DNA from: an uncultured archaeon
GTDB taxonomy: Archaea; Asgardarchaeota; Lokiarchaeia; Sigyniarchaeales; SOKP01
NCBI GenBank assembly: GCA_964493715.1
Contig: CAZBPC010000081.1
Location: 1-15,367, forward strand
Length of the DNA: 15,367 nt
Direction: 5' to 3'
Positions within the stretch are counted from its first letter, which is position 1; the number at the start of each line of letters is the position of its first letter. Below, in pieces: positions 387 to 14,467 of the stretch. The notes beneath the pieces are model-generated. The model was not told where the DNA came from, ran no database searches, and saw nothing but the letters and a program-made list of their open reading frames with translations. A program made the position numbers and the translations under genes.

Positions 387-1151
387 ATGAATGTGTATGA
401 TTTGTTTTTTAGCATATGTTTGGGGTTATTTATCGGGGGGATTATCATGTCAATAATCTCAATGATTCTTGCTGAAATTTCAACTCATGATACTTCCGCA
501 TCGGACCATATTGATCACATCGATCATTTAGATCATATTGTTGACCATATTGATCATATCGATCATTTTGACCATATCGATCATTTTGACCATATCGATC
601 ATTTAGATCATGTTGACCAAGTTGACCACATCGATCATCCTGATCATCCCGATCATCCCGATCATGTGGATAAATATGATCATTCAGATTCTTCAAAAGA
701 TTTTAATCATCTTGATGACACTACACCTGCTCCTTTCATGTTATTATTTTCTACATCATTATTAATTTTTGGAATCTCAGGAATCGTGTTATATTATTCA
801 TTAGGAGAATTATTCAGATTTTTATTATTCATATTTACTCCGGCTATTACATACGCAATTACCAAATTGATTTCAGTGGGGTGGAAAAAAATGGCTAAAT
901 CTAGATATTATGAGATCTCTTCAACTTCTTATCAAATCGGAAAAGTTGGTGAAGTAATATTAAATGTTGATAAGAGGGGTGGAGTAATTGAAATTCCCTC
1001 CCAAACACCATTAAAGTTTGAACAATTACATGTAAAGCCTTATCGAGAATCAGACATTTTTGAAAGGGGAACAAAAGTTTATATTTGCGATGTTCAAGGT
1101 GATTATTTATTAGTAGATACCAATAAGAATTCAATAAGGAAGAGGAAATAA
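387..1151 (+). CDS. NfeD/YqiJ(YuaF)-like membrane protein (flotillin partner) with an Asp-His tandem repeat loop
   Basis: Three hydrophobic segments (LFFSICLGLFIGGIIMSIISMILA, FMLLFSTSLLIFGISGIVLYY, FLLFIFTPAITYAITKLISVGW). C-terminal NfeD-type OB-fold pattern (IGKVGEV...GGVIEI...GTKVYICDVQGDYLLV). Lies directly upstream of an SPFH gene. Start is ATG 387 or GTG 375. Confidence 0.8.
   Translation: MNVYDLFFSICLGLFIGGIIMSIISMILAEISTHDTSASDHIDHIDHLDHIVDHIDHIDHFDHIDHFDHIDHLDHVDQVDHIDHPDHPDHPDHVDKYDHSDSSKDFNHLDDTTPAPFMLLFSTSLLIFGISGIVLYYSLGELFRFLLFIFTPAITYAITKLISVGWKKMAKSRYYEISSTSYQIGKVGEVILNVDKRGGVIEIPSQTPLKFEQLHVKPYRESDIFERGTKVYICDVQGDYLLVDTNKNSIRKRK
504..686 (+). repeat. Coding tandem repeat with a 9-bp / 3-aa period (D-H-x), 20 units
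   Basis: DHI DHI DHL DHIV DHI DHI DHF DHI DHF DHI DHL DHV DQV DHI DHP DHP DHP DHV DKY DHS; 18 of 20 units begin with DH. An exact 18-bp unit CATATCGATCATTTTGAC occurs at 555-572 and 573-590, with a partial copy at 591-604. Confidence 0.95.
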
Positions 1152-1295
1152 GGTAAAATTGAAAAATAACATTAAGAAGTTAATTTTTTTTGTAAATAAA
1201 GCGTTTATTAAATGGGTTTTGGAGTCACGGGAACAAATTTTTATTTGTTTTTCAAATTTAAAAAAAATCGAACTAAATAAATTAAATTATTAAAA

Positions 1296-1302
1296 AAGGA
1301 GG
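1296..1302 (+). promoter_or_regulatory. Shine-Dalgarno-like site for the SPFH gene
   Basis: AAGGAGG 12 nt upstream of ATG 1315. Confidence 0.55.
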
Positions 1303-1314
1303 AAAGAAACAATA

Positions 1315-2490
1315 ATGTTACTACAAGAAGTAAATGGGATGGTAGTAGGTCTAATTATTACAGGGATATGTATTTTCTTTATGATCGTAATCTTTATGGT
1401 TACAAGATATAGAAAATTTAAAACTAACCAATTTGTCATTCATTTGAGAAACGGTAAAGTAAGACATGCTGGATTAGGAGGTAGTATGTGGTTATTACCA
1501 CTAATAGATGAATATATTGTGATCCCAACTACGAGTATTCAAACAATTTTGGAGGCTCACGAGCAAGTTGTATCAATGGAATATCAGAATATTTCAATCG
1601 TAGGAATGTTAATTTGGAAAGTCATAGATCCTGAAAAAGCTTTCAGTGCAGTTTCATGGCTCGAACGAGAAGAAAATTATGTTGATAAAATTTTAAAGAA
1701 TGCCGCTGAAGCAATTATTAGAACAACTTGTGCAAACATGCCACTTGAAAAAATAATTCGGGAACGACGTGAAATAATTGAACTTGTTAGTAAAGAATTA
1801 CATGAACTAACTGCTAATTGGGGAGTCGTTATAGAATCAATTGAGATCAGAGAAGTTAATATTTTAGAACCAGAGCTAAAAAGTAATATGGAAGCAACAA
1901 AAAAAGCAGTTGAGTATAAAAAAGCTCGTATAGCAAAAGCTGATGCAGAACTTACATCAAAGTTAAGAGAATTGGAAGTAAGAAACGAAGTTGGTACTCA
2001 AGAACAGAATGTTGAAAGAGAGATCCTATTGCGTGAAAAAGAAAAGCAAATCGCTATAGCTGAAAGAGAACGCGAACGTAAGCAAATTGAAGCGGATGGA
2101 GAACGGCAAAAAGTAGTAATTGAGGCCGATGCTCAAGCATCTGCTATTAAGAAAAAGTTAATTGCTCAAGCAGAAGGTGAAGCTGAAGGCATAAGGCAAC
2201 AAATGCTTGCTCAAGCAGAAGGATTCCAAGAGCAAGTAAACGCCATGAGTCATGCTGACCAAAGATTCTTAGCAGTACAATTAACCAACATATTACCTGA
2301 AATATTTAAGCATTTAAGCCCTGATAAAATGTTCATTATGGGTAATGGTGAAGAGGCGTTTAGTTCCCTTTCGAAAGCAATTTTACCGTTCATGCAATTA
2401 TTGCCTGAATACTCAGATAAAATAAAGAAATTTTTAGGGAACGGAGATATGGCATCCAAGGTTAAAGATTTGTTAACTATTCAAGAATAA
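1315..2490 (+). CDS. SPFH/Band-7 domain flotillin-like membrane protein
   Basis: Single N-terminal TM helix. SPFH core (WKVIDPEKA, AEAIIRTTCANMPLEKIIRER, WGVVIESIEIREV). Long E/K/A/R-rich coiled coil with flotillin-type AEGEAEG repeats. Confidence 0.92.
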   Translation: MLLQEVNGMVVGLIITGICIFFMIVIFMVTRYRKFKTNQFVIHLRNGKVRHAGLGGSMWLLPLIDEYIVIPTTSIQTILEAHEQVVSMEYQNISIVGMLIWKVIDPEKAFSAVSWLEREENYVDKILKNAAEAIIRTTCANMPLEKIIRERREIIELVSKELHELTANWGVVIESIEIREVNILEPELKSNMEATKKAVEYKKARIAKADAELTSKLRELEVRNEVGTQEQNVEREILLREKEKQIAIAERERERKQIEADGERQKVVIEADAQASAIKKKLIAQAEGEAEGIRQQMLAQAEGFQEQVNAMSHADQRFLAVQLTNILPEIFKHLSPDKMFIMGNGEEAFSSLSKAILPFMQLLPEYSDKIKKFLGNGDMASKVKDLLTIQE

Positions 2491-2543: not shown

Positions 2544-3392
2544 TCAAATTTTAGTTGAGCTTGCAAATATAGCATTGATTCCGTTAGTATGAAATTCGAC
2601 TAGCTCTGGTAGTGATGATAGGATCGCCATTGGAAGTTTTACAGGAAGTGGGATCTTAAAAAAGCTTTTTTTATCATCAACAAGAATTATTCCAAATATT
2701 TCCTTTATGTTTAAAGCTAGATCTTTGATTATTTGAAAAGAATATGCGTTTCCATGCTCAGGTGGAAGAAAATGTTCAATTTTAGAGATAATTTCTTTGA
2801 TTACATCAAATGCCGGAGTATTAAGACGATACAATCCTAAATGTTTATATTGCTCAATAAATTCATCTGAAACATCATCTAATAGAATTATTTTAACATC
2901 AATATCTCCAATTTTTTGTGTCAATAAAGTGAAAATCTTTGTATTAAAGAAATTGAGTGGAAAAAAGGATATAAAAGATTTTTTTGCGGCATCAATTAGC
3001 ATGTAGATAAAATCTTGGATTGCTTCTAACCCCGCTACGCCCATAAAAGGAATTTCTTCCGCTTCTTCAGTGCTGTATATTTTATCAATAATTTCTAGAC
3101 TTTTATTACTAATTGCTTGAATATTCCTTGAAAAATTAAGAAAGTACTCTTGAATCTTTTCTTTTGGCTTAATCATAAACAATTTCTTTTTCTTTCTATG
3201 AATTACATCGACTAATCCTTTTTTTTGGAGAAGCAAAAGATTCTCATAGGTTTTTGGTTGAGGAACTCCACTATATAGATGAATTTCTCTTGCACTTAAC
3301 ACAATATATCTAATTAGAGTTTCTAGAATTTGAGCCTCATATTTTGTAAAATCAAATTCTTTTAACAGCGGTTCTAAACGATCCATATTCAT
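2544..3392 (-). CDS. TrmB-family transcriptional regulator
   Basis: N-terminal wHTH LKEFDFTKYEAQILETL...SAREIHLYSGVPQPKTYENLLLLQKKGLV, typical of TrmB. It is followed by a coiled linker and an effector-like domain (LIDAAKKS...LVDDKKSF). Start is ATG 3392 or 3386; the ORF track uses TTG 3398. Confidence 0.88.
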   Translation of the reverse strand: MNMDRLEPLLKEFDFTKYEAQILETLIRYIVLSAREIHLYSGVPQPKTYENLLLLQKKGLVDVIHRKKKKLFMIKPKEKIQEYFLNFSRNIQAISNKSLEIIDKIYSTEEAEEIPFMGVAGLEAIQDFIYMLIDAAKKSFISFFPLNFFNTKIFTLLTQKIGDIDVKIILLDDVSDEFIEQYKHLGLYRLNTPAFDVIKEIISKIEHFLPPEHGNAYSFQIIKDLALNIKEIFGIILVDDKKSFFKIPLPVKLPMAILSSLPELVEFHTNGINAIFASSTKI

Positions 3393-3415
3393 ATTCAAAA
3401 TATTTTTATACTATT

Positions 3416-3431
3416 TACTACTTAAGTAGTA
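3416..3431. promoter_or_regulatory. Perfect 16-bp palindrome, candidate TrmB-family operator
   Basis: TACTACTTAAGTAGTA lies in the ~70-bp divergent gap between the regulator and the ABC operon. TACT/AGTA half-sites resemble characterised archaeal TrmB sites. Confidence 0.75.
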
Positions 3432-3462
3432 TAATATTTTAATTTTTGGTTTTGAAAAAAAA

Positions 3463-4464
3463 ATGTCAGAATCAGTATTAAATAATCAAAATAAACAACA
3501 AGAACTAATTACCATTAAAAATATAACAAAGAAGTATCCAAATACAGTTGCATTAGAGGATATATCATTTAACATTCGGAAAGGAGAGATTTTTTGCATT
3601 ATCGGTCCAAATGGGGCTGGTAAGTCGACCATCGTTAAAATACTAACTGGTCAGATTAAAGCATCAAAAGGGGAAATAAGAATACATGAGTTCCATACCA
3701 TAAAGGATAGGAAAAAGATATTAGGAATGTTCGGGTTAGTCCCTCAAGAAATTGCATTATATAATGAATTAACCGGCAGAGAAAACTTGGAATTTCATGG
3801 TCGTCTCTTTAATCTTTCCAAACAATTTATGACCCAAAAAATAGATGAACTTCTAACCATGGCTGGACTTATTGATCGCCAGCATGATTTAGTGAAGACA
3901 TATTCTGGTGGCATGAAGAGAAGACTACAGTTAATCCGCGCATTATTGCATCAACCAGAAATAGTAGTTCTGGATGAACCAACCTTAGGTGTTGATGTAC
4001 AGTCTCGAAATGCAATACATAAATATATACTAGATTTACCTTCCAAAGGGAAGACTGTAGTATTAACCACTAATTACATGGAAGAAGCAGAACGGTTAGC
4101 TGATCGCTTAATAATTTTAGATACTAAAATTATAGATGGTCCAGGAAGATTATTAGAAATTCAAGAGAGAGTGTTTCCTAATTTAATTATAGAATTTAAA
4201 ACTGAACGCGCCATGTTAAAATCTGAATTTCTTACTATATTTCTCCAAGATGAATTGAAGGGAAAAGTCATTTCAGAGAAAGATATGAGTGAAAGACATG
4301 TAATTCTTCAAATCATTTTCGATACTACTCATATAGAAGAAATTTTTGAGAAATTTATTGCATATACTAAAGCTAACGACATTCCAATTGAGGAGTTCAC
4401 GATAAAGAGACCTAATTTAGAAGACGTGTTCATAAAATTAACAGGAAAAGAATTTCGAGAGTGA
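3463..4464 (+). CDS. ABC-2 type (DrrA/LnrL-like) exporter ATP-binding subunit
   Basis: Walker A GPNGAGKST, Q-loop VPQE, signature YSGGM, Walker B VVLDEPT, and a C-terminal LEDVF motif of DrrA-like ATPases. Confidence 0.95.
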   Translation: MSESVLNNQNKQQELITIKNITKKYPNTVALEDISFNIRKGEIFCIIGPNGAGKSTIVKILTGQIKASKGEIRIHEFHTIKDRKKILGMFGLVPQEIALYNELTGRENLEFHGRLFNLSKQFMTQKIDELLTMAGLIDRQHDLVKTYSGGMKRRLQLIRALLHQPEIVVLDEPTLGVDVQSRNAIHKYILDLPSKGKTVVLTTNYMEEAERLADRLIILDTKIIDGPGRLLEIQERVFPNLIIEFKTERAMLKSEFLTIFLQDELKGKVISEKDMSERHVILQIIFDTTHIEEIFEKFIAYTKANDIPIEEFTIKRPNLEDVFIKLTGKEFRE

Positions 4465-5660
4465 TAATACTGAATAGTGTCCTAGAGGAACAAAAAAAAC
4501 TAAAATATAAAATAAGTAAATGGTTTCGAGATTTACGCACAATAATCAATAAGGATTTGATTTCTACCAAAAGAGTAAAAAAATATTTCTTTTCGGGTGT
4601 AATTCCTCCTCTAGTTATGTTAATTGTGTTCACTTCATTTTTACAGGTAAGCAATCCAGAAACGTACACCGTGATCGTGGTAGATGATGACAAATCACAA
4701 TATTCCGGAATTATGTTGAATTATGTTGCAAATATTAGTAGCGATTTTGCTCCTTGGTTTTCAATTATAAAGATTGATACATTTGATGAAGCAATGGCTC
4801 TATTGCAAGACTTTACCTATTTAGGGTTAATCTACATACCTTCTGGCTTTGAAGCAAATATAACATCTGGGATCGAAAATCAAAAGGGAATAATTCACTT
4901 AATAGTACAAAACATCAACAATGATTATGTAAAGAACTATATGCAGCGTTTAGATGAAGCAGTCCTAACTTTTAATGAAGATGTACATGTATCAGTTGGT
5001 TCGGTAGATCTTTTTGCTATAAGTCTGGAAAAGACATACGTGATCGATCAACCAGTCAATAATGCAAAAAGTATTACCTTGGGCATTATAGCTATGTACG
5101 GAATTATTTGTGGGATGGTGTTTGGTGCCTTGAATATTGCAAAAGAATACGAAGATTCCACTATTCTAGAGATAGCTAACAGCCCAGTCCGACGAACTGC
5201 CTATATGGCTTCAAAACAATTAATTGCGGTAATTCTCGGAGGATTAGTAATCTTAATTTTCTCCATTCTTCTATTCTTGATTTTTCATATCGAATTTCGA
5301 GGAGATTTATTTATTGTTATAATCTCATTTATACTTATTACTTGGATTCACTCAGGGATAGGTTGCTTAATTGGTTTAAAATTTAAACGTACCATGCCAG
5401 TAATTTTGGTTTGTATAGTTGCTTCAATGTTACTTTGGTTTTTTACGGGTGGTTTTGCACCCTTGAATATGCTAGGCGAAAATGTTATACTAGTTTCAAG
5501 ATTCATTCCTGCTACTTATTGGACAGAAATTTTGGTAGCAGAGACACTTTATCCATCAATCACTTACGTTCTGCCCCGTTTATTAATTTTAATAATTCTA
5601 AGTATAATAATTACGTTAATTTCATGGTATTTAATTTCTAAGGAGGGTTTTAGAGTATGA
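4461..5660 (+). CDS. ABC-2 type exporter permease with large extracytoplasmic loop
   Basis: One N-terminal TM, a soluble loop starting VIVVDDDKS, the IAKEYEDSTILEIANSPV motif, five further TMs and the FTGGFAP...IPATY motif. GTGA overlap with the ATPase stop. Confidence 0.9.
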   Translation: MIILNSVLEEQKKLKYKISKWFRDLRTIINKDLISTKRVKKYFFSGVIPPLVMLIVFTSFLQVSNPETYTVIVVDDDKSQYSGIMLNYVANISSDFAPWFSIIKIDTFDEAMALLQDFTYLGLIYIPSGFEANITSGIENQKGIIHLIVQNINNDYVKNYMQRLDEAVLTFNEDVHVSVGSVDLFAISLEKTYVIDQPVNNAKSITLGIIAMYGIICGMVFGALNIAKEYEDSTILEIANSPVRRTAYMASKQLIAVILGGLVILIFSILLFLIFHIEFRGDLFIVIISFILITWIHSGIGCLIGLKFKRTMPVILVCIVASMLLWFFTGGFAPLNMLGENVILVSRFIPATYWTEILVAETLYPSITYVLPRLLILIILSIIITLISWYLISKEGFRV

Positions 5661-8552: not shown

Positions 8553-9383
8553 TCAAATGATTTGACTACAATAATTTCCACCAAATGGTCGCTTGGAAAT
8601 GGGTTTGATCGTCTGGAATTGCTTTTTCCAGATGATATCACTCGGAATGCCAAAAATCTTGCAAAATTCGTCAATGAATGGGGAGATTTCTGCGATCTCT
8701 TCCTCCGTAATATCAAATACCTTAGCACCAATTCCTAATTTGTCTTCGAGAGATACGTCCGTTCGAAGAAATATTTTTCCCCCATGAATACCCGCGCCCA
8801 ATTCATTTCCACATATTGGTTGGTCGCTTTCCTGGAAGTTTCCGTTTTCAAACTTTAATCCGAGAACGATGATAAGTCCTCCTGCCATATACTCCCCTAA
8901 AAAATCATTGATTGTTCCCCCAATAATTAGCAAGGGAAACTTATCCTCATATTCTTTCATATGAATACCAACTCTATAACCAACATCACCTTTGATAAAG
9001 ATTTTTCCCCCTCTTGAAGATAATCCTATTACATCTCCACCATCACCATTAATAATTATTGTTCCATGATTCATCGTGTTTCCAGATTGATCCTCGCAAT
9101 TTCCATTAACTATGATTTTCGGACCATCCATAAAAATTCCTAAATCATTTCCGGGAATACCATTAATTGTGATTTCTATGTCACCTTTTAGAGCAGCACC
9201 TATAAATCTTTGACCACAAACATTATTCAATATAATAGATTTATAATTATTGTTTACTGCTTCATGTATCATGGCATTTAGTTCTCTAGAATCAATTGGA
9301 TTCCCATTGGGAGCAGCATTTATCTCTATTATCTCCTCCAATCCAATCTCAAAAATTTTTTCCTTAATTTCATTTACAATCAT
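8553..9383 (-). CDS. gltB3: Glutamate synthase large subunit domain 3 (GXGXG beta-helix), stand-alone
   Basis: GQRFIG, GIPGNDLGIFMDG, GDVGYRVGIHMK and DFLGEYMAGG glycine repeats. ATG 9383 is preferred because AGGTGA lies 7 nt upstream; the ORF track start is 9401. Confidence 0.9.
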   Translation of the reverse strand: MIVNEIKEKIFEIGLEEIIEINAAPNGNPIDSRELNAMIHEAVNNNYKSIILNNVCGQRFIGAALKGDIEITINGIPGNDLGIFMDGPKIIVNGNCEDQSGNTMNHGTIIINGDGGDVIGLSSRGGKIFIKGDVGYRVGIHMKEYEDKFPLLIIGGTINDFLGEYMAGGLIIVLGLKFENGNFQESDQPICGNELGAGIHGGKIFLRTDVSLEDKLGIGAKVFDITEEEIAEISPFIDEFCKIFGIPSDIIWKKQFQTIKPISKRPFGGNYCSQII

Positions 9384-9387
9384 TCTT

Positions 9388-10908
9388 TTATTCACCTGCA
9401 TGTTTTACTTCTAGAATTTCCGCTATTCGTGGATTTGGACCAATGTATCTTAAGCGGTCTCTATTTGATCGGAGAGATTCAACAGAATCAATTCCCATCG
9501 CTCCTAAAACATCTTTTAATTCTTCATTCCATGAATGAAATAAATTTATTATTCTATTTTTTGCAATAGTAATATCTAATCTTTTTACTAGAAATTCATC
9601 TTGAGTAGCTATTCCCCATGGACAAAGCCCTCTAAAACATTGCTGACAAACTCTACATCCCATTGCAATTAATACAGGCATACAGCACATCGCAACATCG
9701 GCGCCTAATGCAATAACTTTTATTAAATCTGCAGAATATCGAATTGATCCACCAGCAATTAAAGTTATTTGTTCTCTTAGATTTTCTTCTCTAAGACTTT
9801 TATCCACAGCTGCAATAGCTAGCTCAATAGGAATACCAGCATGATCTCTTATAATTCTTGGGGCAGCACCAGTTCCACCTCTGAATCCATCGAGAGTTAG
9901 GAAATCTGCTCCACTTCTCACTATACCTACTGCAATTGGAGCTGAGTTATGAACTGCTGCAATTTTTACGCCAACAGGTATTTTATATCTTGTAGCCTCT
10001 TTTAATGCTGCGATTAATTGAGCCAGATCTTCAATTGAATAGATATCGTGATGCGGATAAGGAGATAATGCATCACTTCCTTCAGGAATCATTCTTGTTT
10101 GGGAGATCAAACTGCTAACCTTTTCTCCTGGTAAATGCCCTCCATGCCCGGGTTTTGCTCCTTGTCCAATTTTTATCTCTATAGCTACTGCATTGTTTAA
10201 ATAATTAAGATCAACCCCAAATCGTCCTGAAGCAACTTCAGTAATGATGTTTGGTGCATATTCATAGAAATCAGGATGTAATCCACCTTCTCCCGAACCT
10301 GCTACAATGTTTAATTCTTTTGCAGCTTGATAGATTGCTTGACATGCATTATAACTAATCGAACCTAAACTCATATGCCCAATCATAATTGGCATCTCTA
10401 TTTCAAAATTGACTGAATTGTTTGTTTTTAATGATACTTCATTCACGTCATTGGATGCTGTAGTAAAATCAAGTTTCTTTGGTTTTCGTCCAAAAAATAT
10501 CTTAGTTTCAATAATTTCACGGATCGGATCAATACTGGGATTAGTTACTTGACAAGAGTCAAGGAGCAAGTCATCAAATATCGATCTAATTGGTCTATCA
10601 TTTCCAGTTGCGGAAATTAAAACTCCCCCAGTACCAGACTGGGCCCAAATGATATTACGGATTTTTTCCGTATAATTACCATGGGGAGGTAAACATGATT
10701 CACTCTGAGAAATATGGATTGCCTTCCCAGGGCACATTACAACACACCTCTGACAAGCTACACATTTGTAATGTTCAGCAACAATTTGTTTTCCGTTAAA
10801 GGAAAAAACACCAAAAGAACAATTGTTAATACACCTTTTACATTTCTTACAGTCCTCTCGATTAACATTAACTTTAAAATGTGAAATAATTTCATGTGTT
10901 AGCGCCAC
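9388..10908 (-). CDS. gltB2: Glutamate synthase FMN-binding subunit (archaeal type) with N-terminal 2[4Fe-4S] ferredoxin domain
   Basis: CKKCKRCINNC and CVACQRCVVMCP; MSLGSIS, SGEGG, VASGRFGV, IEIKIGQGAKPGHGGHLPGEKV, SPYPHHDIYSIEDLAQLI, DGFRGGTGAAP; C-terminal CRVCQQCFRGLCPWGIATQD. Confidence 0.95.
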   Translation of the reverse strand: MALTHEIISHFKVNVNREDCKKCKRCINNCSFGVFSFNGKQIVAEHYKCVACQRCVVMCPGKAIHISQSESCLPPHGNYTEKIRNIIWAQSGTGGVLISATGNDRPIRSIFDDLLLDSCQVTNPSIDPIREIIETKIFFGRKPKKLDFTTASNDVNEVSLKTNNSVNFEIEMPIMIGHMSLGSISYNACQAIYQAAKELNIVAGSGEGGLHPDFYEYAPNIITEVASGRFGVDLNYLNNAVAIEIKIGQGAKPGHGGHLPGEKVSSLISQTRMIPEGSDALSPYPHHDIYSIEDLAQLIAALKEATRYKIPVGVKIAAVHNSAPIAVGIVRSGADFLTLDGFRGGTGAAPRIIRDHAGIPIELAIAAVDKSLREENLREQITLIAGGSIRYSADLIKVIALGADVAMCCMPVLIAMGCRVCQQCFRGLCPWGIATQDEFLVKRLDITIAKNRIINLFHSWNEELKDVLGAMGIDSVESLRSNRDRLRYIGPNPRIAEILEVKHAGE

Positions 10909-10909
10909 T

Positions 10910-12103
10910 TTAACAAGCCTCTTCTTGTATTAAATTATTCTTTTTTACTGTTGTCTCAAGTCCATTTTTTATTAATCCATTCCCAAGTTCTGCGATAACA
11001 GCATTACCACTTCTCGGATGCCAAATATCTTTTAAATTGAAATCACGGTCGTTAATCATCAATCTTCTAAAAGATGCTTCTTCACTACTCATATAAATAG
11101 TGTTCTCATCCTCAGAAATTCCTACCACTAATGGACGCAATTTTTTTCTATCAGATAATCCAATCATTGTTGGAACTGGGTTTGAATACCCAACTACAAT
11201 AGAAAATGGGCCATTTAACATTGCACTCCTATAAGTCGCTCTTATACTTTTGAATAATATTTGAGATTTTTTATCTAATTTTTCAATATCTTCAAATAAT
11301 GGTGGTGCTAAAGCAATGGTAGCGATAGACATTGGAATATTATGTTTACGGCATAATAGATCAATTAAGTATGCGATGACTTCTGTATCAGTAGATAATG
11401 TGCATTTATATCCAAAAGATTCTAAATACCTTCTATTAGTTCCATAAGAAGTTATTTCTCCATTATGAACTACTGAACAATTTAGTAAATTAAAAGGGTG
11501 AGCACCAGCCCACCAACCAGGTGTGTTTGTTGGAAACCTCGAGTGTGCTAACCACATATAAGCTTTATACTCTGAAATTTTATAAAAATCTGCAATTTCG
11601 TTTGACCATCCATTCCCTTTAAATACACCCATATCCTTTCCCGATGACATAACAAACGCATTTTTAATGTTCGTATTAATATCCATTACAATTTTTACTA
11701 TTTTTTCATCATTATTTGGATTATTAATGCTTCCAAGTTCGAAAAATACTCTCCAAATTATTGGGAGATTGTCAATATTGACGGGTTTTTTTGTCGGAAT
11801 CGGTTCAGATTGAATAATATTACCTTTTTTTTCAAGATATTCTAAAACTTGTGTTTTTGCAATCTCATCATCAAGAAGAAAATGAAAAGCATAATAATCT
11901 TTATATTTAGAATAGATACCATAGGCAGCATACCCTGCACCAAGTCCATTTTCCCTTTCTTTTAAAATACATAACATCTCAATTACTTTTTTGCCCGAGA
12001 CTCTGTTTCCATCAATATTTATGAAACCCGATATTCCACATCCGTCAAACACTCTCTGATTCCTAAATTTTTCAGGTAAAGAAGTATAATTTTCCCATCT
12101 CAT
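10910..12103 (-). CDS. gltB1: Class II (Ntn) glutamine amidotransferase, glutamate synthase domain 1, stand-alone
   Basis: DGCGISG (Cys22), ERENGLGAGYA, LAHSRFPTNT...AHPF, VVHNGEI, TDTEV, NGPFS and DRKKLRP. Confidence 0.92.
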   Translation of the reverse strand: MRWENYTSLPEKFRNQRVFDGCGISGFINIDGNRVSGKKVIEMLCILKERENGLGAGYAAYGIYSKYKDYYAFHFLLDDEIAKTQVLEYLEKKGNIIQSEPIPTKKPVNIDNLPIIWRVFFELGSINNPNNDEKIVKIVMDINTNIKNAFVMSSGKDMGVFKGNGWSNEIADFYKISEYKAYMWLAHSRFPTNTPGWWAGAHPFNLLNCSVVHNGEITSYGTNRRYLESFGYKCTLSTDTEVIAYLIDLLCRKHNIPMSIATIALAPPLFEDIEKLDKKSQILFKSIRATYRSAMLNGPFSIVVGYSNPVPTMIGLSDRKKLRPLVVGISEDENTIYMSSEEASFRRLMINDRDFNLKDIWHPRSGNAVIAELGNGLIKNGLETTVKKNNLIQEEAC

Positions 12104-12523
12104 AACATGTTCACTTCATTAAATTTTAAGAATCCTGTTTGATATGTTCTTTTCCTATTAAATTAAATAATTATTTCAAATCTCCTACTTCTGTTTTAGT
12201 AAACTTTAAACCAACATTTTTTCGGGCTGTTCTTGATAATATCCCTATAGTCCCTGTTTGATAAAAAGAATTAAATTCTGATTCATAACCTTTTGTTATA
12301 AAATCTTTTTCTGCTGCTAAATTTCGTAAGATCGTAAAAATTTAAACAACCTCTTGCTTAATTTTTTTACCACTTTTTTACTTTACATAGAGATATTAAT
12401 TAAATACAAAGTATCTTCATCACACTTCTGACTTTTTTAGATGATCAGTATTTTTTCCATTTTAAAATTTGTAGCGGGAATAGTTTCCCATCTGAACATT
12501 ATCTTAATTATTGTACAAAAAGC

Positions 12524-12531
12524 TATTTAAA
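12524..12531 (-). promoter_or_regulatory. Candidate TATA box upstream of the glt operon leader
   Basis: Minus strand reads AATAAAC-TTTAAATA, then 24 nt, then ATG 12499. This is the usual spacing for a leaderless archaeal transcript. The AT-rich background lowers confidence. Confidence 0.35.
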
Positions 12532-12787
12532 GTTTATTACGATAAAAATGTATTGATGGTTTGTTTAGAATAAATGATTTTTCTTTGAACGATTCGATAA
12601 AATAGTATCAAATTTCACCACAATAATATGAAGATTTTCAGTTAATTCGATGATTTTTGTCGATTTGGAGCTATTTTAAAAAGAATAAGTGAAAATTTAA
12701 TATAGTGTTAATAAAAAAATAATATAAAGAATGGATATGGCATTCAGTCTAAAATAAATTTAGGTTCGGTATCTTAGATACTTTATT

Positions 12788-13231
12788 GGGTAATCCGATT
12801 TTATCAAGCTCAACTTTTCCATTAAAAGATCCTGCACTGCCTGTTGTTTTGCATTCAATTAAACCGTAGACTTCAACAAGCTTACCCCATCCTACTGCTT
12901 CGCATTCATTTTTTACTGGTTTATGAAGATCTCCTGCTCCACTTACACATAATCGAAACATATTTTTAAGTCTTGGTTCGGGATTGTTTTTTAAATAACG
13001 GGTTAATCCGATGAATAAATTTTCAACTCCGGGTAGAATTACGCCACCTTCCGGACCGACTTCTTAAATTGTATCTACTACTGCTTTCATTGATGAAGAA
13101 GGTTTTAGAAAAAGAATATTATAATCTGTTCCTTCAATAACAACATTTTGAACAATTGTCATGTAAAATGCGTGAAACATTGGTAAAATACCAATAGGTG
13201 CCATTGGATGTTTTGCATCAGGCATCCAACA
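12788..13231 (-). pseudogene. Decayed internal fragment of a long-chain acyl-CoA ligase, paralog of the gene at 14610-15367
   Basis: One frame reads CWMPDAKHPMAPIGILPMFHAFYMT...VVDTI*EVGPEGGVILPG...MFRLCVSGAGDLHKPVK...YGLIEC...IGLP, with an in-frame TAA at 13064-13066. 38/58 aa are identical to the downstream paralog over the shared stretch. The P-loop and C-terminal domain are absent. Confidence 0.88.
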
Positions 13232-13319
13232 GTTTTTATTAATTTGAGAGTTTAGTATCCATATCTATATAAATAAGATTATAATAATTATATCTTAAAT
13301 ATACAAACTAATTGATAAA

Positions 13320-13721
13320 ATGTCAAATAATTTTTCAGGATCGGGATGTTTAATATCAAGCTTATTAATTCTGGTTTACGGATTCTTAATTATCTGTAAG
13401 GTCCCTTTTTCATTAATATGGCTTTTGCCCGTGATATTATGTGTTATTACAACATTTCTCTCTATAGATTATTCTTCAATGGGAGCTGAACATTATAAAC
13501 ACGTAAAAAACAAAAATGATCAAGATCAGCATAAACGACGTCCAATAGTGAACTCTAATATTGCGAGAAACTCGGTTAGAAGCTATGCAAACACTTTATT
13601 GGTAGAAGATATCAAAGGTTTAGAGCCTGTAAAATCGATAGCCCTCTATTGCCAATTTTGCGGAACGCGGAGAGAAAAAAATGCAAAATTTTGCCACCAA
13701 TGTGGATCCAAGTTGGAATAG
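13320..13721 (+). CDS. Small two-TM membrane protein with C-terminal zinc ribbon
   Basis: Two N-terminal hydrophobic segments, a polar linker, and YCQFCG-x8-FCHQCGSKL-type CxxC...CxxC motif at the C-terminus. Confidence 0.82.
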   Translation: MSNNFSGSGCLISSLLILVYGFLIICKVPFSLIWLLPVILCVITTFLSIDYSSMGAEHYKHVKNKNDQDQHKRRPIVNSNIARNSVRSYANTLLVEDIKGLEPVKSIALYCQFCGTRREKNAKFCHQCGSKLE

Positions 13722-13927: not shown

Positions 13928-14467
13928 ATGAAAGAAGTTATGTACAACTTCAAAGTAATTGTTATAGGTCCTTCTGCAGTCGGCAAAACCAGTATAATTA
14001 ATCGCTTTGTTAATGATACTTTTTCCATGAAGTATCAGTTTACCATGGGAGTAGATTTTCTTGCTAAAACAATAGTATTAGAATCAGGACAAATTGCCAA
14101 ACTCACAATTTGGGATATTGGAGGACAAGAACGATTTGAATTTTTGCAACGCAGTTTCTATGCGGGTGCAAATGGAGCAATATTGGTATTTGATTTATCA
14201 AGAGAACATACTTTTATAGAAATTGATAAATGGCTTAAGGATCTTCGGAAACAAATGGCGGACGATGTTCCGTATATATTACTAGGGAATAAGTCTGATT
14301 TAATTCCTCAAATAGGGGAAATTATAGATAGAAATGAGATTTTTAATTATATAAAAGTTCAAAAAGCAATCTTTCTTGACACCTCTGCCAAAACCGGGGA
14401 AAAAATCGAAACTGCATTTAATCAATTGATTGACCAAATGATAAAAAAAATGAAAAAGAACAAGTAA
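13928..14467 (+). CDS. Ras-superfamily small GTPase, Rab-like (eukaryotic signature protein)
   Basis: G1 GPSAVGKTS, G2 FTMGVDF, G3 WDIGGQERF, G4 GNKSD and G5 TSAKTG. RabF-like motifs are present. No C-terminal cysteine. Confidence 0.95.
   Translation: MKEVMYNFKVIVIGPSAVGKTSIINRFVNDTFSMKYQFTMGVDFLAKTIVLESGQIAKLTIWDIGGQERFEFLQRSFYAGANGAILVFDLSREHTFIEIDKWLKDLRKQMADDVPYILLGNKSDLIPQIGEIIDRNEIFNYIKVQKAIFLDTSAKTGEKIETAFNQLIDQMIKKMKKNK

Follow-up and report, generated by a model that had tools for sequence, protein, structure and literature searches.

A periodic Asp-His loop in an Asgard archaeal NfeD-like protein encoded beside an SPFH gene: a candidate cation- and proton-binding element

The window analysed here is a stretch of 15,367 nucleotides (nt) on the forward strand of contig CAZBPC010000081.1 (assembly GCA_964493715.1) from an uncultured Asgard archaeon, near the start of which a gene for a short NfeD-like membrane protein of 254 amino acids (aa) is followed by a gene for a flotillin-like SPFH protein. 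Between the first and second transmembrane helices (TM1 and TM2) of the NfeD-like protein runs a regular array of Asp-His (DH) dipeptides, nearly all of them followed by a hydrophobic residue or Pro. As a YqiJ-type NfeD and its SPFH partner, the pair belongs to a known class of system, and the array is real and conserved, being one flavour of an acidic repeat loop that extends across the family. The loop is read here, tentatively, as a putative binder of cations or protons at a membrane scaffold, a proposal close to that of an earlier note on the same DNA, which had suggested a metal- or pH-responsive membrane microdomain module. The features of the two genes, with the evidence for each in brackets (pLDDT, predicted local distance difference test), are as follows.

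387..1151, forward strand: gene for the NfeD-like membrane protein, YqiJ-type, short, 254 aa (open reading frame, AlphaFold2 model, Foldseek, PDB profile match)
393..485, forward strand: TM1, aa 3-33, with the model helix extending to aa 40 (hydropathy; AlphaFold2 helix 3-40, pLDDT 92-98)
486..725, forward strand: low-complexity acidic/His loop, aa 34-113, probably cytoplasmic (composition; unstructured in AlphaFold2, pLDDT 42-52; positive-inside rule)
504..686, forward strand: (Asp-His-hydrophobic)n array, 18 DH units, period 3 (Tandem Repeats Finder, dipeptide counts)
726..896, forward strand: TPAP motif and TM2-TM3 hairpin, aa 114-170, terminating in WKKMAKSR (AlphaFold2 helices 117-138 and 144-170, pLDDT ~97)
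945..1118, forward strand: C-terminal NfeD-type OB-fold beta-barrel, aa 187-244 (AlphaFold2 strands, pLDDT 89-98; match to PDB entry 3cp0)
1152..1314, no strand: intergenic spacer, 163 nt, AT-rich, with T-runs and a GGAGG immediately 5' of the SPFH start (sequence)
1315..2490, forward strand: flotillin-like SPFH/Band_7 gene, 391 aa, with a transmembrane helix at aa 9-30, the SPFH domain at aa 36-212 and a long helix at aa 184-309 (Pfam, PDB sequence matches, AlphaFold2)

Eighteen DH dipeptides lie within residues 40-99 of the 254-aa protein, and 14 of the 17 spacings between them measure exactly 3 residues, with one spacing of 4 and two of 6. The residue that follows DH is Ile in eight units, Pro in three, Leu, Phe and Val in two each and Ser in one, i.e., I, L, F, V or P in 17/18. 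The loop between aa 34 and 112 (79 residues) comprises 25 Asp, 20 His and 2 Lys; when these same residues were shuffled 100,000 times, the count of DH dipeptides reached a maximum of 14 and never 18, and the remaining 13 open reading frames (ORFs) of the window (3,971 aa; His 1.7%, Asp 4.4%) contain a single DH in all. At the DNA level, Tandem Repeats Finder detects a degenerate repeat at 504-665 (period 9, 18 and 27 nt), within which the codons have fared differently: nucleotide identity between the 18 units is 86% for the Asp codon and 93% for the His codon vs 40% for the third. The position of the array between TM1 and TM2 follows from hydropathy and the AlphaFold2 model alike. The start of the ORF is taken as the ATG at 387, with an in-frame GTG at 375 as the alternative; the starts of homologues match the MNVYD/MDIYD position, that is, the ATG. 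A minus-strand ORF at 445..696 (83 aa, with DRYGQND... units) was rejected as an independent gene, being the array read in reverse. The earlier note's account of the array accordingly stands as regards its regularity, its place between TM1 and TM2 and its choice of third residue, with one correction: the formula (Asp-His-X)20 was slightly generous, the array consisting of 18 DH units plus DQ and DK variants.

The rest of the protein is recognisable by its fold. The AlphaFold2 model, built on an alignment of 71 relatives, has a mean pLDDT of 77.7 and consists of helices at 3-40, 117-138 and 144-170, no structure at 41-116 (pLDDT 42-52), and a barrel at 187-244. When the model was compared with the PDB by Foldseek, ranks 1-5 and 7 all fell to NfeD-type proteins, namely YbbJ of the QmcA-YbbJ complex (8z5g), 3cp0, the C-terminal domain of PH1510 (3wwv), MTH693 (2k5h), B. 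subtilis YuaF (2k14, rank 5), and PH0471 (2exd); 3cp0 superimposes on the model OB barrel with a template-modelling score of 0.85 and a root-mean-square deviation (rmsd) of 1.3 A, and is also the match of the family profile among PDB sequences (E 2.5e-4). Conservation extends to the membrane helices, given that the ICLGLFIGG motif of TM1 recurs among homologues and that P114, P116, G129, G132 and W166 are invariant across the family alignment. Comparison by hhalign of a wide family alignment with E. coli K-12 YqiJ covers 133 columns spanning TM2, TM3 and the OB domain at E 1.1e-5 (probability 81.6%). A profile of distant relatives is homologous to the Asgard family profile (probability 100%, E 2.7e-52) and retrieves, with E-values between 1e-19 and 4e-9, three proteins positive for Pfam YqiJ_N (P0328, P0330 and P0333). 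With an OB-type beta-barrel, three N-terminal transmembrane helices in both model and hydropathy, and an SPFH gene adjacent, the protein is classed among the short NfeDs, as a divergent member of the YqiJ type, by modelled fold and profile and not by membership of a curated hidden Markov model, because no Pfam or NCBIfam model reaches its cut-off.

In the 391-aa product of the following gene, aa 36-212 match Pfam Band_7/SPFH (E 1.1e-27). This domain follows a hydrophobic N-terminal stretch (aa 9-30, then RYRKFK) that would serve as a membrane anchor, the arrangement of the SPFH2 class (Hinderhofer et al., 2009), and AQAEGEAEG-type sequence is visible in the protein. Among 625 homologues found, the top 120 are 77-100% identical to it and bear the source names "flotillin" (several assigned by the Joint Genome Institute, JGI) or "SPFH". 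The label "flotillin-like", taken partly from these names, should be understood loosely, because the PDB sequence matches (QmcA, 1.6e-11; stomatin, ~3e-10; flotillin-1, 4e-9) do not separate the subfamilies and the score with the NCBIfam FloT model, 26.3 bits, falls far short of the 700 required.

Pairing of the two genes was tabulated across 68 related loci, one genome per species, found with a closer family alignment. An SPFH homologue of 66-89% identity is present in 67/68: in 62 it lies on the same strand, downstream of the NfeD-like gene with a spacer of 39-564 nt, and in five it lies upstream; the remaining locus (L058) stops at a contig edge. Pairwise identities of the NfeD-like and SPFH proteins correlate (r = 0.77 over 62 loci), a value that shared species history alone could yield. 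The pairing is strongly conserved in Asgard archaea: the titles of 67/68 loci are those of Asgard or uncultured archaea, and the nearest relative of the window is a Hermodarchaeota metagenome-assembled genome (MAG; L002), with 82% identity in the NfeD-like and 89% in the SPFH protein. The sixty-eighth title is bacterial (L040, DATKTP010000246.1, Ca. Deferrimicrobium MAG); this locus has the order SPFH then NfeD and a very long DHI array and groups with Helarchaeota-type sequences; mis-binning or gene transfer is possible. The TrmB and ABC-2 transporter genes 3' of the SPFH gene in the window were considered as functional context and dropped, as the arrangement is conserved in 0/68 loci.

How far the array itself is conserved was examined through a homology search with the non-repeat part of the protein (aa 108-254), which yielded 125 proteins with E<=0.01 from 176 candidates. 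The 120 that were listed (those with source names being named as Asgard MAGs) make, together with the window protein, 121 sequences, 92 of which could be parsed at full length (30 of the 92 being His-type). Every homologue examined has an acidic low-complexity repeat between TM1 and TM2, and the repeat comes in two flavours, either (Asp-His-hydrophobic)n, including variants such as DHxDHxDLGH, or a His-free (Asp/Glu-Val/Ile/Ala)n with a period of 2. Within the 30 His-type proteins, V, I, A, L, F or M follows DH in 407 of 456 cases (89%). A tree of the conserved C-terminal part holds 70 rows (the 68 loci, one with two copies, and the window), comprising 34 His-type loops, 34 with Asp/Glu (D/E) only and 2 unclassifiable; the labels of L039 and L055 come from partly masked stretches, and masked N runs leave the arrays of many other loci (e.g., L002, L012, L019, L063) only partly visible. 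The flavours change just 5-7 times on this tree, vs ~24 times for shuffled labels (0/500 shuffles as low), and each is maintained across clades in which identity of the conserved domains is as low as 45-65%. The L010 locus carries both, with tandem NfeD paralogues at 2827-3669 (His-free, D/E) and 4001-4870 (DH) before one SPFH gene, each clustering with the clade of its own flavour.

Beyond the Asgard family, 66 representatives of distant relatives (E<=1e-3; one bears a Myxococcota name) carry other periodic Asp/His repeats at the same site, such as GHDVSHDIG, DHDLSV and SGHDAS, and bacterial proteins positive for YqiJ_N have long HDHDHD loops at that position. On these sequences, the family trait is Asp (or Glu) alternating with small hydrophobic residues over a variable length, to which His is a stable, lineage-specific addition. 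Universality of the acidic repeat, the hydrophobic third residue, the kept Asp and His codons and the rarity of flavour changes together suggest that the loop is a selected trait.

In light of this survey, the remaining claims of the earlier note can be placed. Its assignments of the two proteins to the NfeD and SPFH families and its pairing of them agree with the fold, profile and synteny results, every Pfam cut-off missed by the NfeD-like protein notwithstanding; its remark that an Asp/His loop at this site is not new holds for E. coli YqiJ as well as for the bacterial loops just mentioned; and the ascription to a lineage related to eukaryotes fits the Asgard titles. The note had also held that loops lacking His in close homologues would count against its proposal. 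In this respect the survey weakens the proposal for about half of the orthologous family: an acidic repeat is found in every homologue examined, but His in 34/70, and the other flavour, in an equal number, is precisely such a His-free loop.

The orientation of the loop can be inferred from charged residues. An extra N-terminal transmembrane helix preceded by a Lys/Arg-rich segment, RWK(R/K)KD, occurs in 79/92 full-length homologues, and WKKxAKSR follows TM3 in homologues; applied to these charges, the positive-inside rule would put both loop and OB domain in the cytoplasm in both the four-helix and the three-helix forms, as the earlier note had supposed for the array, and this placement is consistent with the predicted cytoplasmic location of the SPFH domain. 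It is also in keeping with the report that the cytosolic domain of NfeD binds flotillin and faces the cytoplasm (PMC11222466), and with basket-like SPFH structures recently described at the inner side of an Asgard plasma membrane (bioRxiv 10.1101/2025.11.06.686947).

Taken together, the gene pair would represent the Asgard version of the prokaryotic NfeD-SPFH membrane-scaffold module, for which E. coli YqiJ-YqiK is probably the closest named relative. The cytoplasmic OB barrel of the three-helix NfeD is expected to dock on the oligomeric SPFH protein, itself held by one N-terminal transmembrane anchor, and the array loop, strongly anionic, fast-varying in length and predicted to be intrinsically disordered and membrane-proximal, would bind or buffer cations and protons at many low-affinity sites, next to or beneath the SPFH assembly. 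At nominal pKa values, the calculated net charge of the loop goes from ~-18 at pH 7 to ~-2 at pH 5. Binding of Zn, Ni, Co and Fe(II) by adjacent Asp/His ligand sets is established coordination chemistry, and neighbouring Asp/His pairs of the array could chelate the same ions; the DH flavour would then respond to pH and transition metals, and the His-free flavour to hard cations only, unless it were simply a fixed polyanion. That the loop functions in cation or proton binding is put at slightly less than an even chance, and metal or pH sensing is a plausible candidate role for it. Among the YqiJ_N-positive relatives, the HD loop of P0328 resembles the His-rich loop region of Pfam Zip at 24.2 bits, below the cut-off of 35.1. 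Precedents for parts of the scheme have been reported: S. aureus NfeD binds flotillin and aids its oligomerisation (PMC11222466), NfeD2/YqiJ shares an operon with SPFH2 proteins (PMC2636767), and a DUF1449-SPFH pair of Shewanella has been linked to iron metabolism through knock-out of the SPFH gene (PMC1468410).

The neighbourhood of the pair in related genomes adds zinc proteins to the picture. A beta-class carbonic anhydrase gene lies 3' of the SPFH gene, on the same strand, in 53/68 loci (e.g., L001:2312-3145, L003:6196-7110), and is absent in ten loci with downstream room, five further loci ending too early. Its product matches Pfam Pro_CA (E 1.5e-18), has the CxDxR and HxxC zinc-ligand motifs in 46/53 and ends in a conserved (hydrophobic-Pro-Lys-Ile)n tail, with at least 2 P-x-hydrophobic repeats in 52/53 and a net charge of 0 to +10 over the last 40 residues. 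The gene accompanies either flavour of loop (25 DH, 26 D/E, 2 unclassified). A tblastn search for it in the window's 15.4 kb found none, and the open-access literature searched yielded no report joining carbonic anhydrase with SPFH or NfeD. Directly upstream of the NfeD gene, 46/68 loci have a gene for a small two-helix membrane protein with a zinc ribbon (e.g., L002:3486-3914), the window's counterpart of which lies 12 kb away. Some Helarchaeota-type homologues (P0120, P0129, P0139) have a zinc ribbon as a C-terminal fusion to NfeD itself. A protein of ~248 aa with no Pfam family is encoded divergently upstream of the cluster in 46/68 loci (e.g., L002:2417-3163, minus strand), and its N-terminus resembles, by eye, a ribbon-helix-helix. 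The other features of the window are these.

8553-12103, reverse strand: archaeal-type split glutamate synthase in three consecutive genes, namely GXGXG, FMN/4Fe-4S (Glu_synthase) and class-II amidotransferase (Pfam)
13320..13721, forward strand: membrane protein with a C-terminal zinc ribbon, 12 kb from the NfeD gene and adjoining the Ras-like GTPase gene (Pfam Zn_Ribbon_1; BLASTP against L002:3486-3911, E 3e-15; tblastn, E ~1e-14)
13928-14467, forward strand: Ras-family small GTPase, a typical Asgard signature gene (Pfam Ras, E 6.6e-45)

The 1.2 kb at 12104-13319 hold one ORF of at least 60 aa (12749..12961, minus strand, 70 aa). No tRNA gene or Rfam match was found in the window, this interval included.

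Despite the aforementioned support, a number of results weigh against a cation- or proton-binding loop on an NfeD-SPFH scaffold. Regarding identity, no Pfam or NCBIfam model was matched above cut-off by the NfeD-like protein, whether scanned entire or in segments: Pfam NfeD (PF01957) reached 13.1 bits (E 0.11) vs a cut-off of 29.1, and only when the C-terminal 87 aa were scanned alone, YqiJ_N reached 8.6 bits vs 23, and YqiJ_OB gave no match at E<=10. By comparison, the two models of the family (YqiJ/DUF1449, PF21001 and PF07290) give 58.2 and 54 bits with YqiJ of E. coli. Nor did any of 28 relatives pass the NfeD cut-off (best, 25.3 bits), these showing only two sub-threshold NfeD matches plus low-complexity noise (Bactofilin, Gp5_trimer_C), and the link to YqiJ stands at only 81.6% probability in the profile comparison. 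Regarding the partnership, physical binding of the two proteins is suggested by homology and synteny only, the T-runs of the 163-nt spacer may mean that the two genes are transcribed separately, and AlphaFold2, given a shallow alignment (26 sequences, ~80% identical), modelled the SPFH protein poorly as a whole (pLDDT 55.5), drawing a single helix at 184-309 (pLDDT 66-87). Regarding the loop, its length ranges over 37-125 residues across the 92 full-length proteins and differs in 53 pairs whose C-terminal parts are at least 95% identical, with in-frame expansion or contraction of the array (in P0004/P0005, P0064/P0065, P0008-P0018 and others) giving, e.g., 244 vs 303 aa or 286 vs 320 aa. Because about half of the orthologues (34/70) have no His, His chemistry cannot be the core function of the family. 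The short loop of E. coli YqiJ, the free variation in length and the His-free half would all fit a loosely constrained spacer, and a passive spacer is indeed the most substantial of the alternatives, judged unlikely and yet to be taken seriously. The loop would then be a slippage-prone polyanionic tether or entropic bristle that, for instance, holds the OB domain at a distance or repels anionic membrane, in which disorder, negative charge and rough length alone matter, and the DH and Asp-Val flavours would be frozen accidents of repeat amplification. The unstructured loop of the AlphaFold2 model and the periodicities of 2, 3, 6, 8 and 9 residues seen in the wider family point the same way. Nevertheless, spacers seldom retain V, I or F at intervals of two or three residues, a hydrophobic residue follows DH in 89% of cases, the Asp and His codons are kept as the third codon drifts, and the flavours persist across divergent clades and stand side by side in the L010 genome, all of which sits poorly with mere frozen accident.

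Other alternatives grant the loop a function of a different kind. An anionic repeat might serve as a docking platform that recruits partners with cationic tails, mainly beta-carbonic anhydrase, into the SPFH microdomain, as the downstream Pro_CA gene beside both flavours and its nearly universal cationic tail would suggest; set against this are the missing gene in the window, the ten loci that have downstream room and no carbonic anhydrase, and the considerations that anionic lipids could equally bind the tail and that common descent inside a single phylum may account for the gene order, so that docking is considered quite improbable. Of similarly low probability, and still more elaborate, is a candidate microcompartment, proposed because the anionic repeat loop is paired with a cationic tail on a proton-producing zinc enzyme: the NfeD loops of Asgard archaea, at roughly one for each SPFH subunit and hence perhaps twenty or more in a cage, would build up a dense layer of Asp/His polyelectrolyte beneath a fenced patch of membrane, there to collect or buffer protons or to hold Zn, with the anhydrase recruited via its (Pro-Lys-Ile)n tail, thereby making the flotillin basket a membrane-bound CO2, bicarbonate and pH compartment whose titration range is tuned by the DH vs D/E flavours. 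A slimmer chance still is given to a regular structure, in which the array, once its charge is neutralised by cations or low pH, becomes an extended polyproline II or beta assembly, joining adjacent NfeD protomers and acting as a gate on SPFH oligomerisation, as in the self-assembling element of the earlier note. The period-2 alternation of Asp and hydrophobic residues in the His-free flavour is a classic amphipathic beta-strand pattern, Pro is tolerated at the third position (which favours an extended conformation over an alpha-helix), and a loop of the His-free flavour (P0122) matches Bactofilin, a beta-helix, at 19.8 bits (cut-off, 27.9); however, AlphaFold2 draws no structure in the loop, periods of 3 and 2 are incompatible with one beta geometry, free variation in length opposes a defined fold, and the low-complexity Pfam matches are all sub-threshold. 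Least probable by some way is the opposite topology, with the loop outside the cell, scavenging or sensing environmental metals. An N-terminal tail is nearly absent from the window's three-helix form, leaving its orientation to few charges, but the Lys/Arg-rich N-terminus of the four-helix homologues and the WKKxAKSR after TM3 place the loop inside, the OB and SPFH domains are both predicted to be cytoplasmic, and NfeD cytosolic domains have been reported to face the cytoplasm (PMC11222466).

The interest of a cation- and proton-binding loop lies in what it would add to the flotillin field. What NfeD proteins do in SPFH/flotillin scaffolds is not yet settled in the field, with help in oligomerisation and stabilisation of unfolded proteins among the proposals that have been published (PMC11222466, PMC13086221), and the present family amounts to a natural experiment in which the same transmembrane and OB chassis bears a periodic loop of the Asp-His or of the Asp/Glu-only kind, occasionally with the two together in a genome, and usually adjoins a zinc enzyme that yields protons. 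If it is true that the loop binds metals or protons and thereby alters the scaffold, a prokaryotic flotillin module would for the first time be given an input of the ligand type, and it would lie in the archaeal lineage closest to eukaryotes; if the loop is a spacer only, it is a curiosity of low-complexity sequence evolution. Neither a description of the periodic Asp-His or acidic repeat loops of this family nor a report of an acidic/His repeat loop in NfeD proteins was found in the open-access literature searched.

Among known systems, E. coli YqiJ-YqiK offers the closest parallel to the pair in the window, sharing both the order of an NfeD-like gene followed by an SPFH gene and the architecture of TM1, loop, TM2-TM3 and OB domain. 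The loop of E. coli YqiJ likewise contains Asp and His (LDAHLDHYD) but as a short stretch, whereas that of the window is a long, strictly periodic DH-hydrophobic array, and the window protein misses the cut-offs of YqiJ_N and YqiJ_OB; the SPFH partners differ in size as well (391 aa vs 553 aa for YqiK) and are 22% identical (E 8e-4). The Firmicute pairs (B. subtilis YuaF-FloT and S. aureus NfeD-FloA) are similar in having a short NfeD with transmembrane helices and a cytoplasmic OB barrel and a flotillin as operon partner, the OB domain having been reported to bind the flotillin coiled coil (PMC11222466); the SPFH protein of the window is nonetheless far from Firmicute FloT by the NCBIfam score given above. 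In the E. coli QmcA-YbbJ complex (8z5g), described as a cage of 26 heterodimers projecting into the cytoplasm (PMC13086221), YbbJ is the best Foldseek match of the model (E 4.6e-4 over 135 columns of transmembrane and OB regions) and QmcA the best PDB sequence match of the SPFH protein. The alignment with YbbJ is loose, at an rmsd of 9.2 A and 15% identity. Outside the NfeD-SPFH systems, His-rich tails serve in Ni and Zn storage or as chaperones in Hpn, HypB, SlyD and UreE. These tails and the His-rich cytoplasmic loops of ZIP and CDF transporters provide an analogy only, being disordered, rich in His and Asp, and able to bind several metal ions at modest affinity; the window protein has no transporter or chaperone domain, and its strict 3-residue period with a hydrophobic third residue is unusual.

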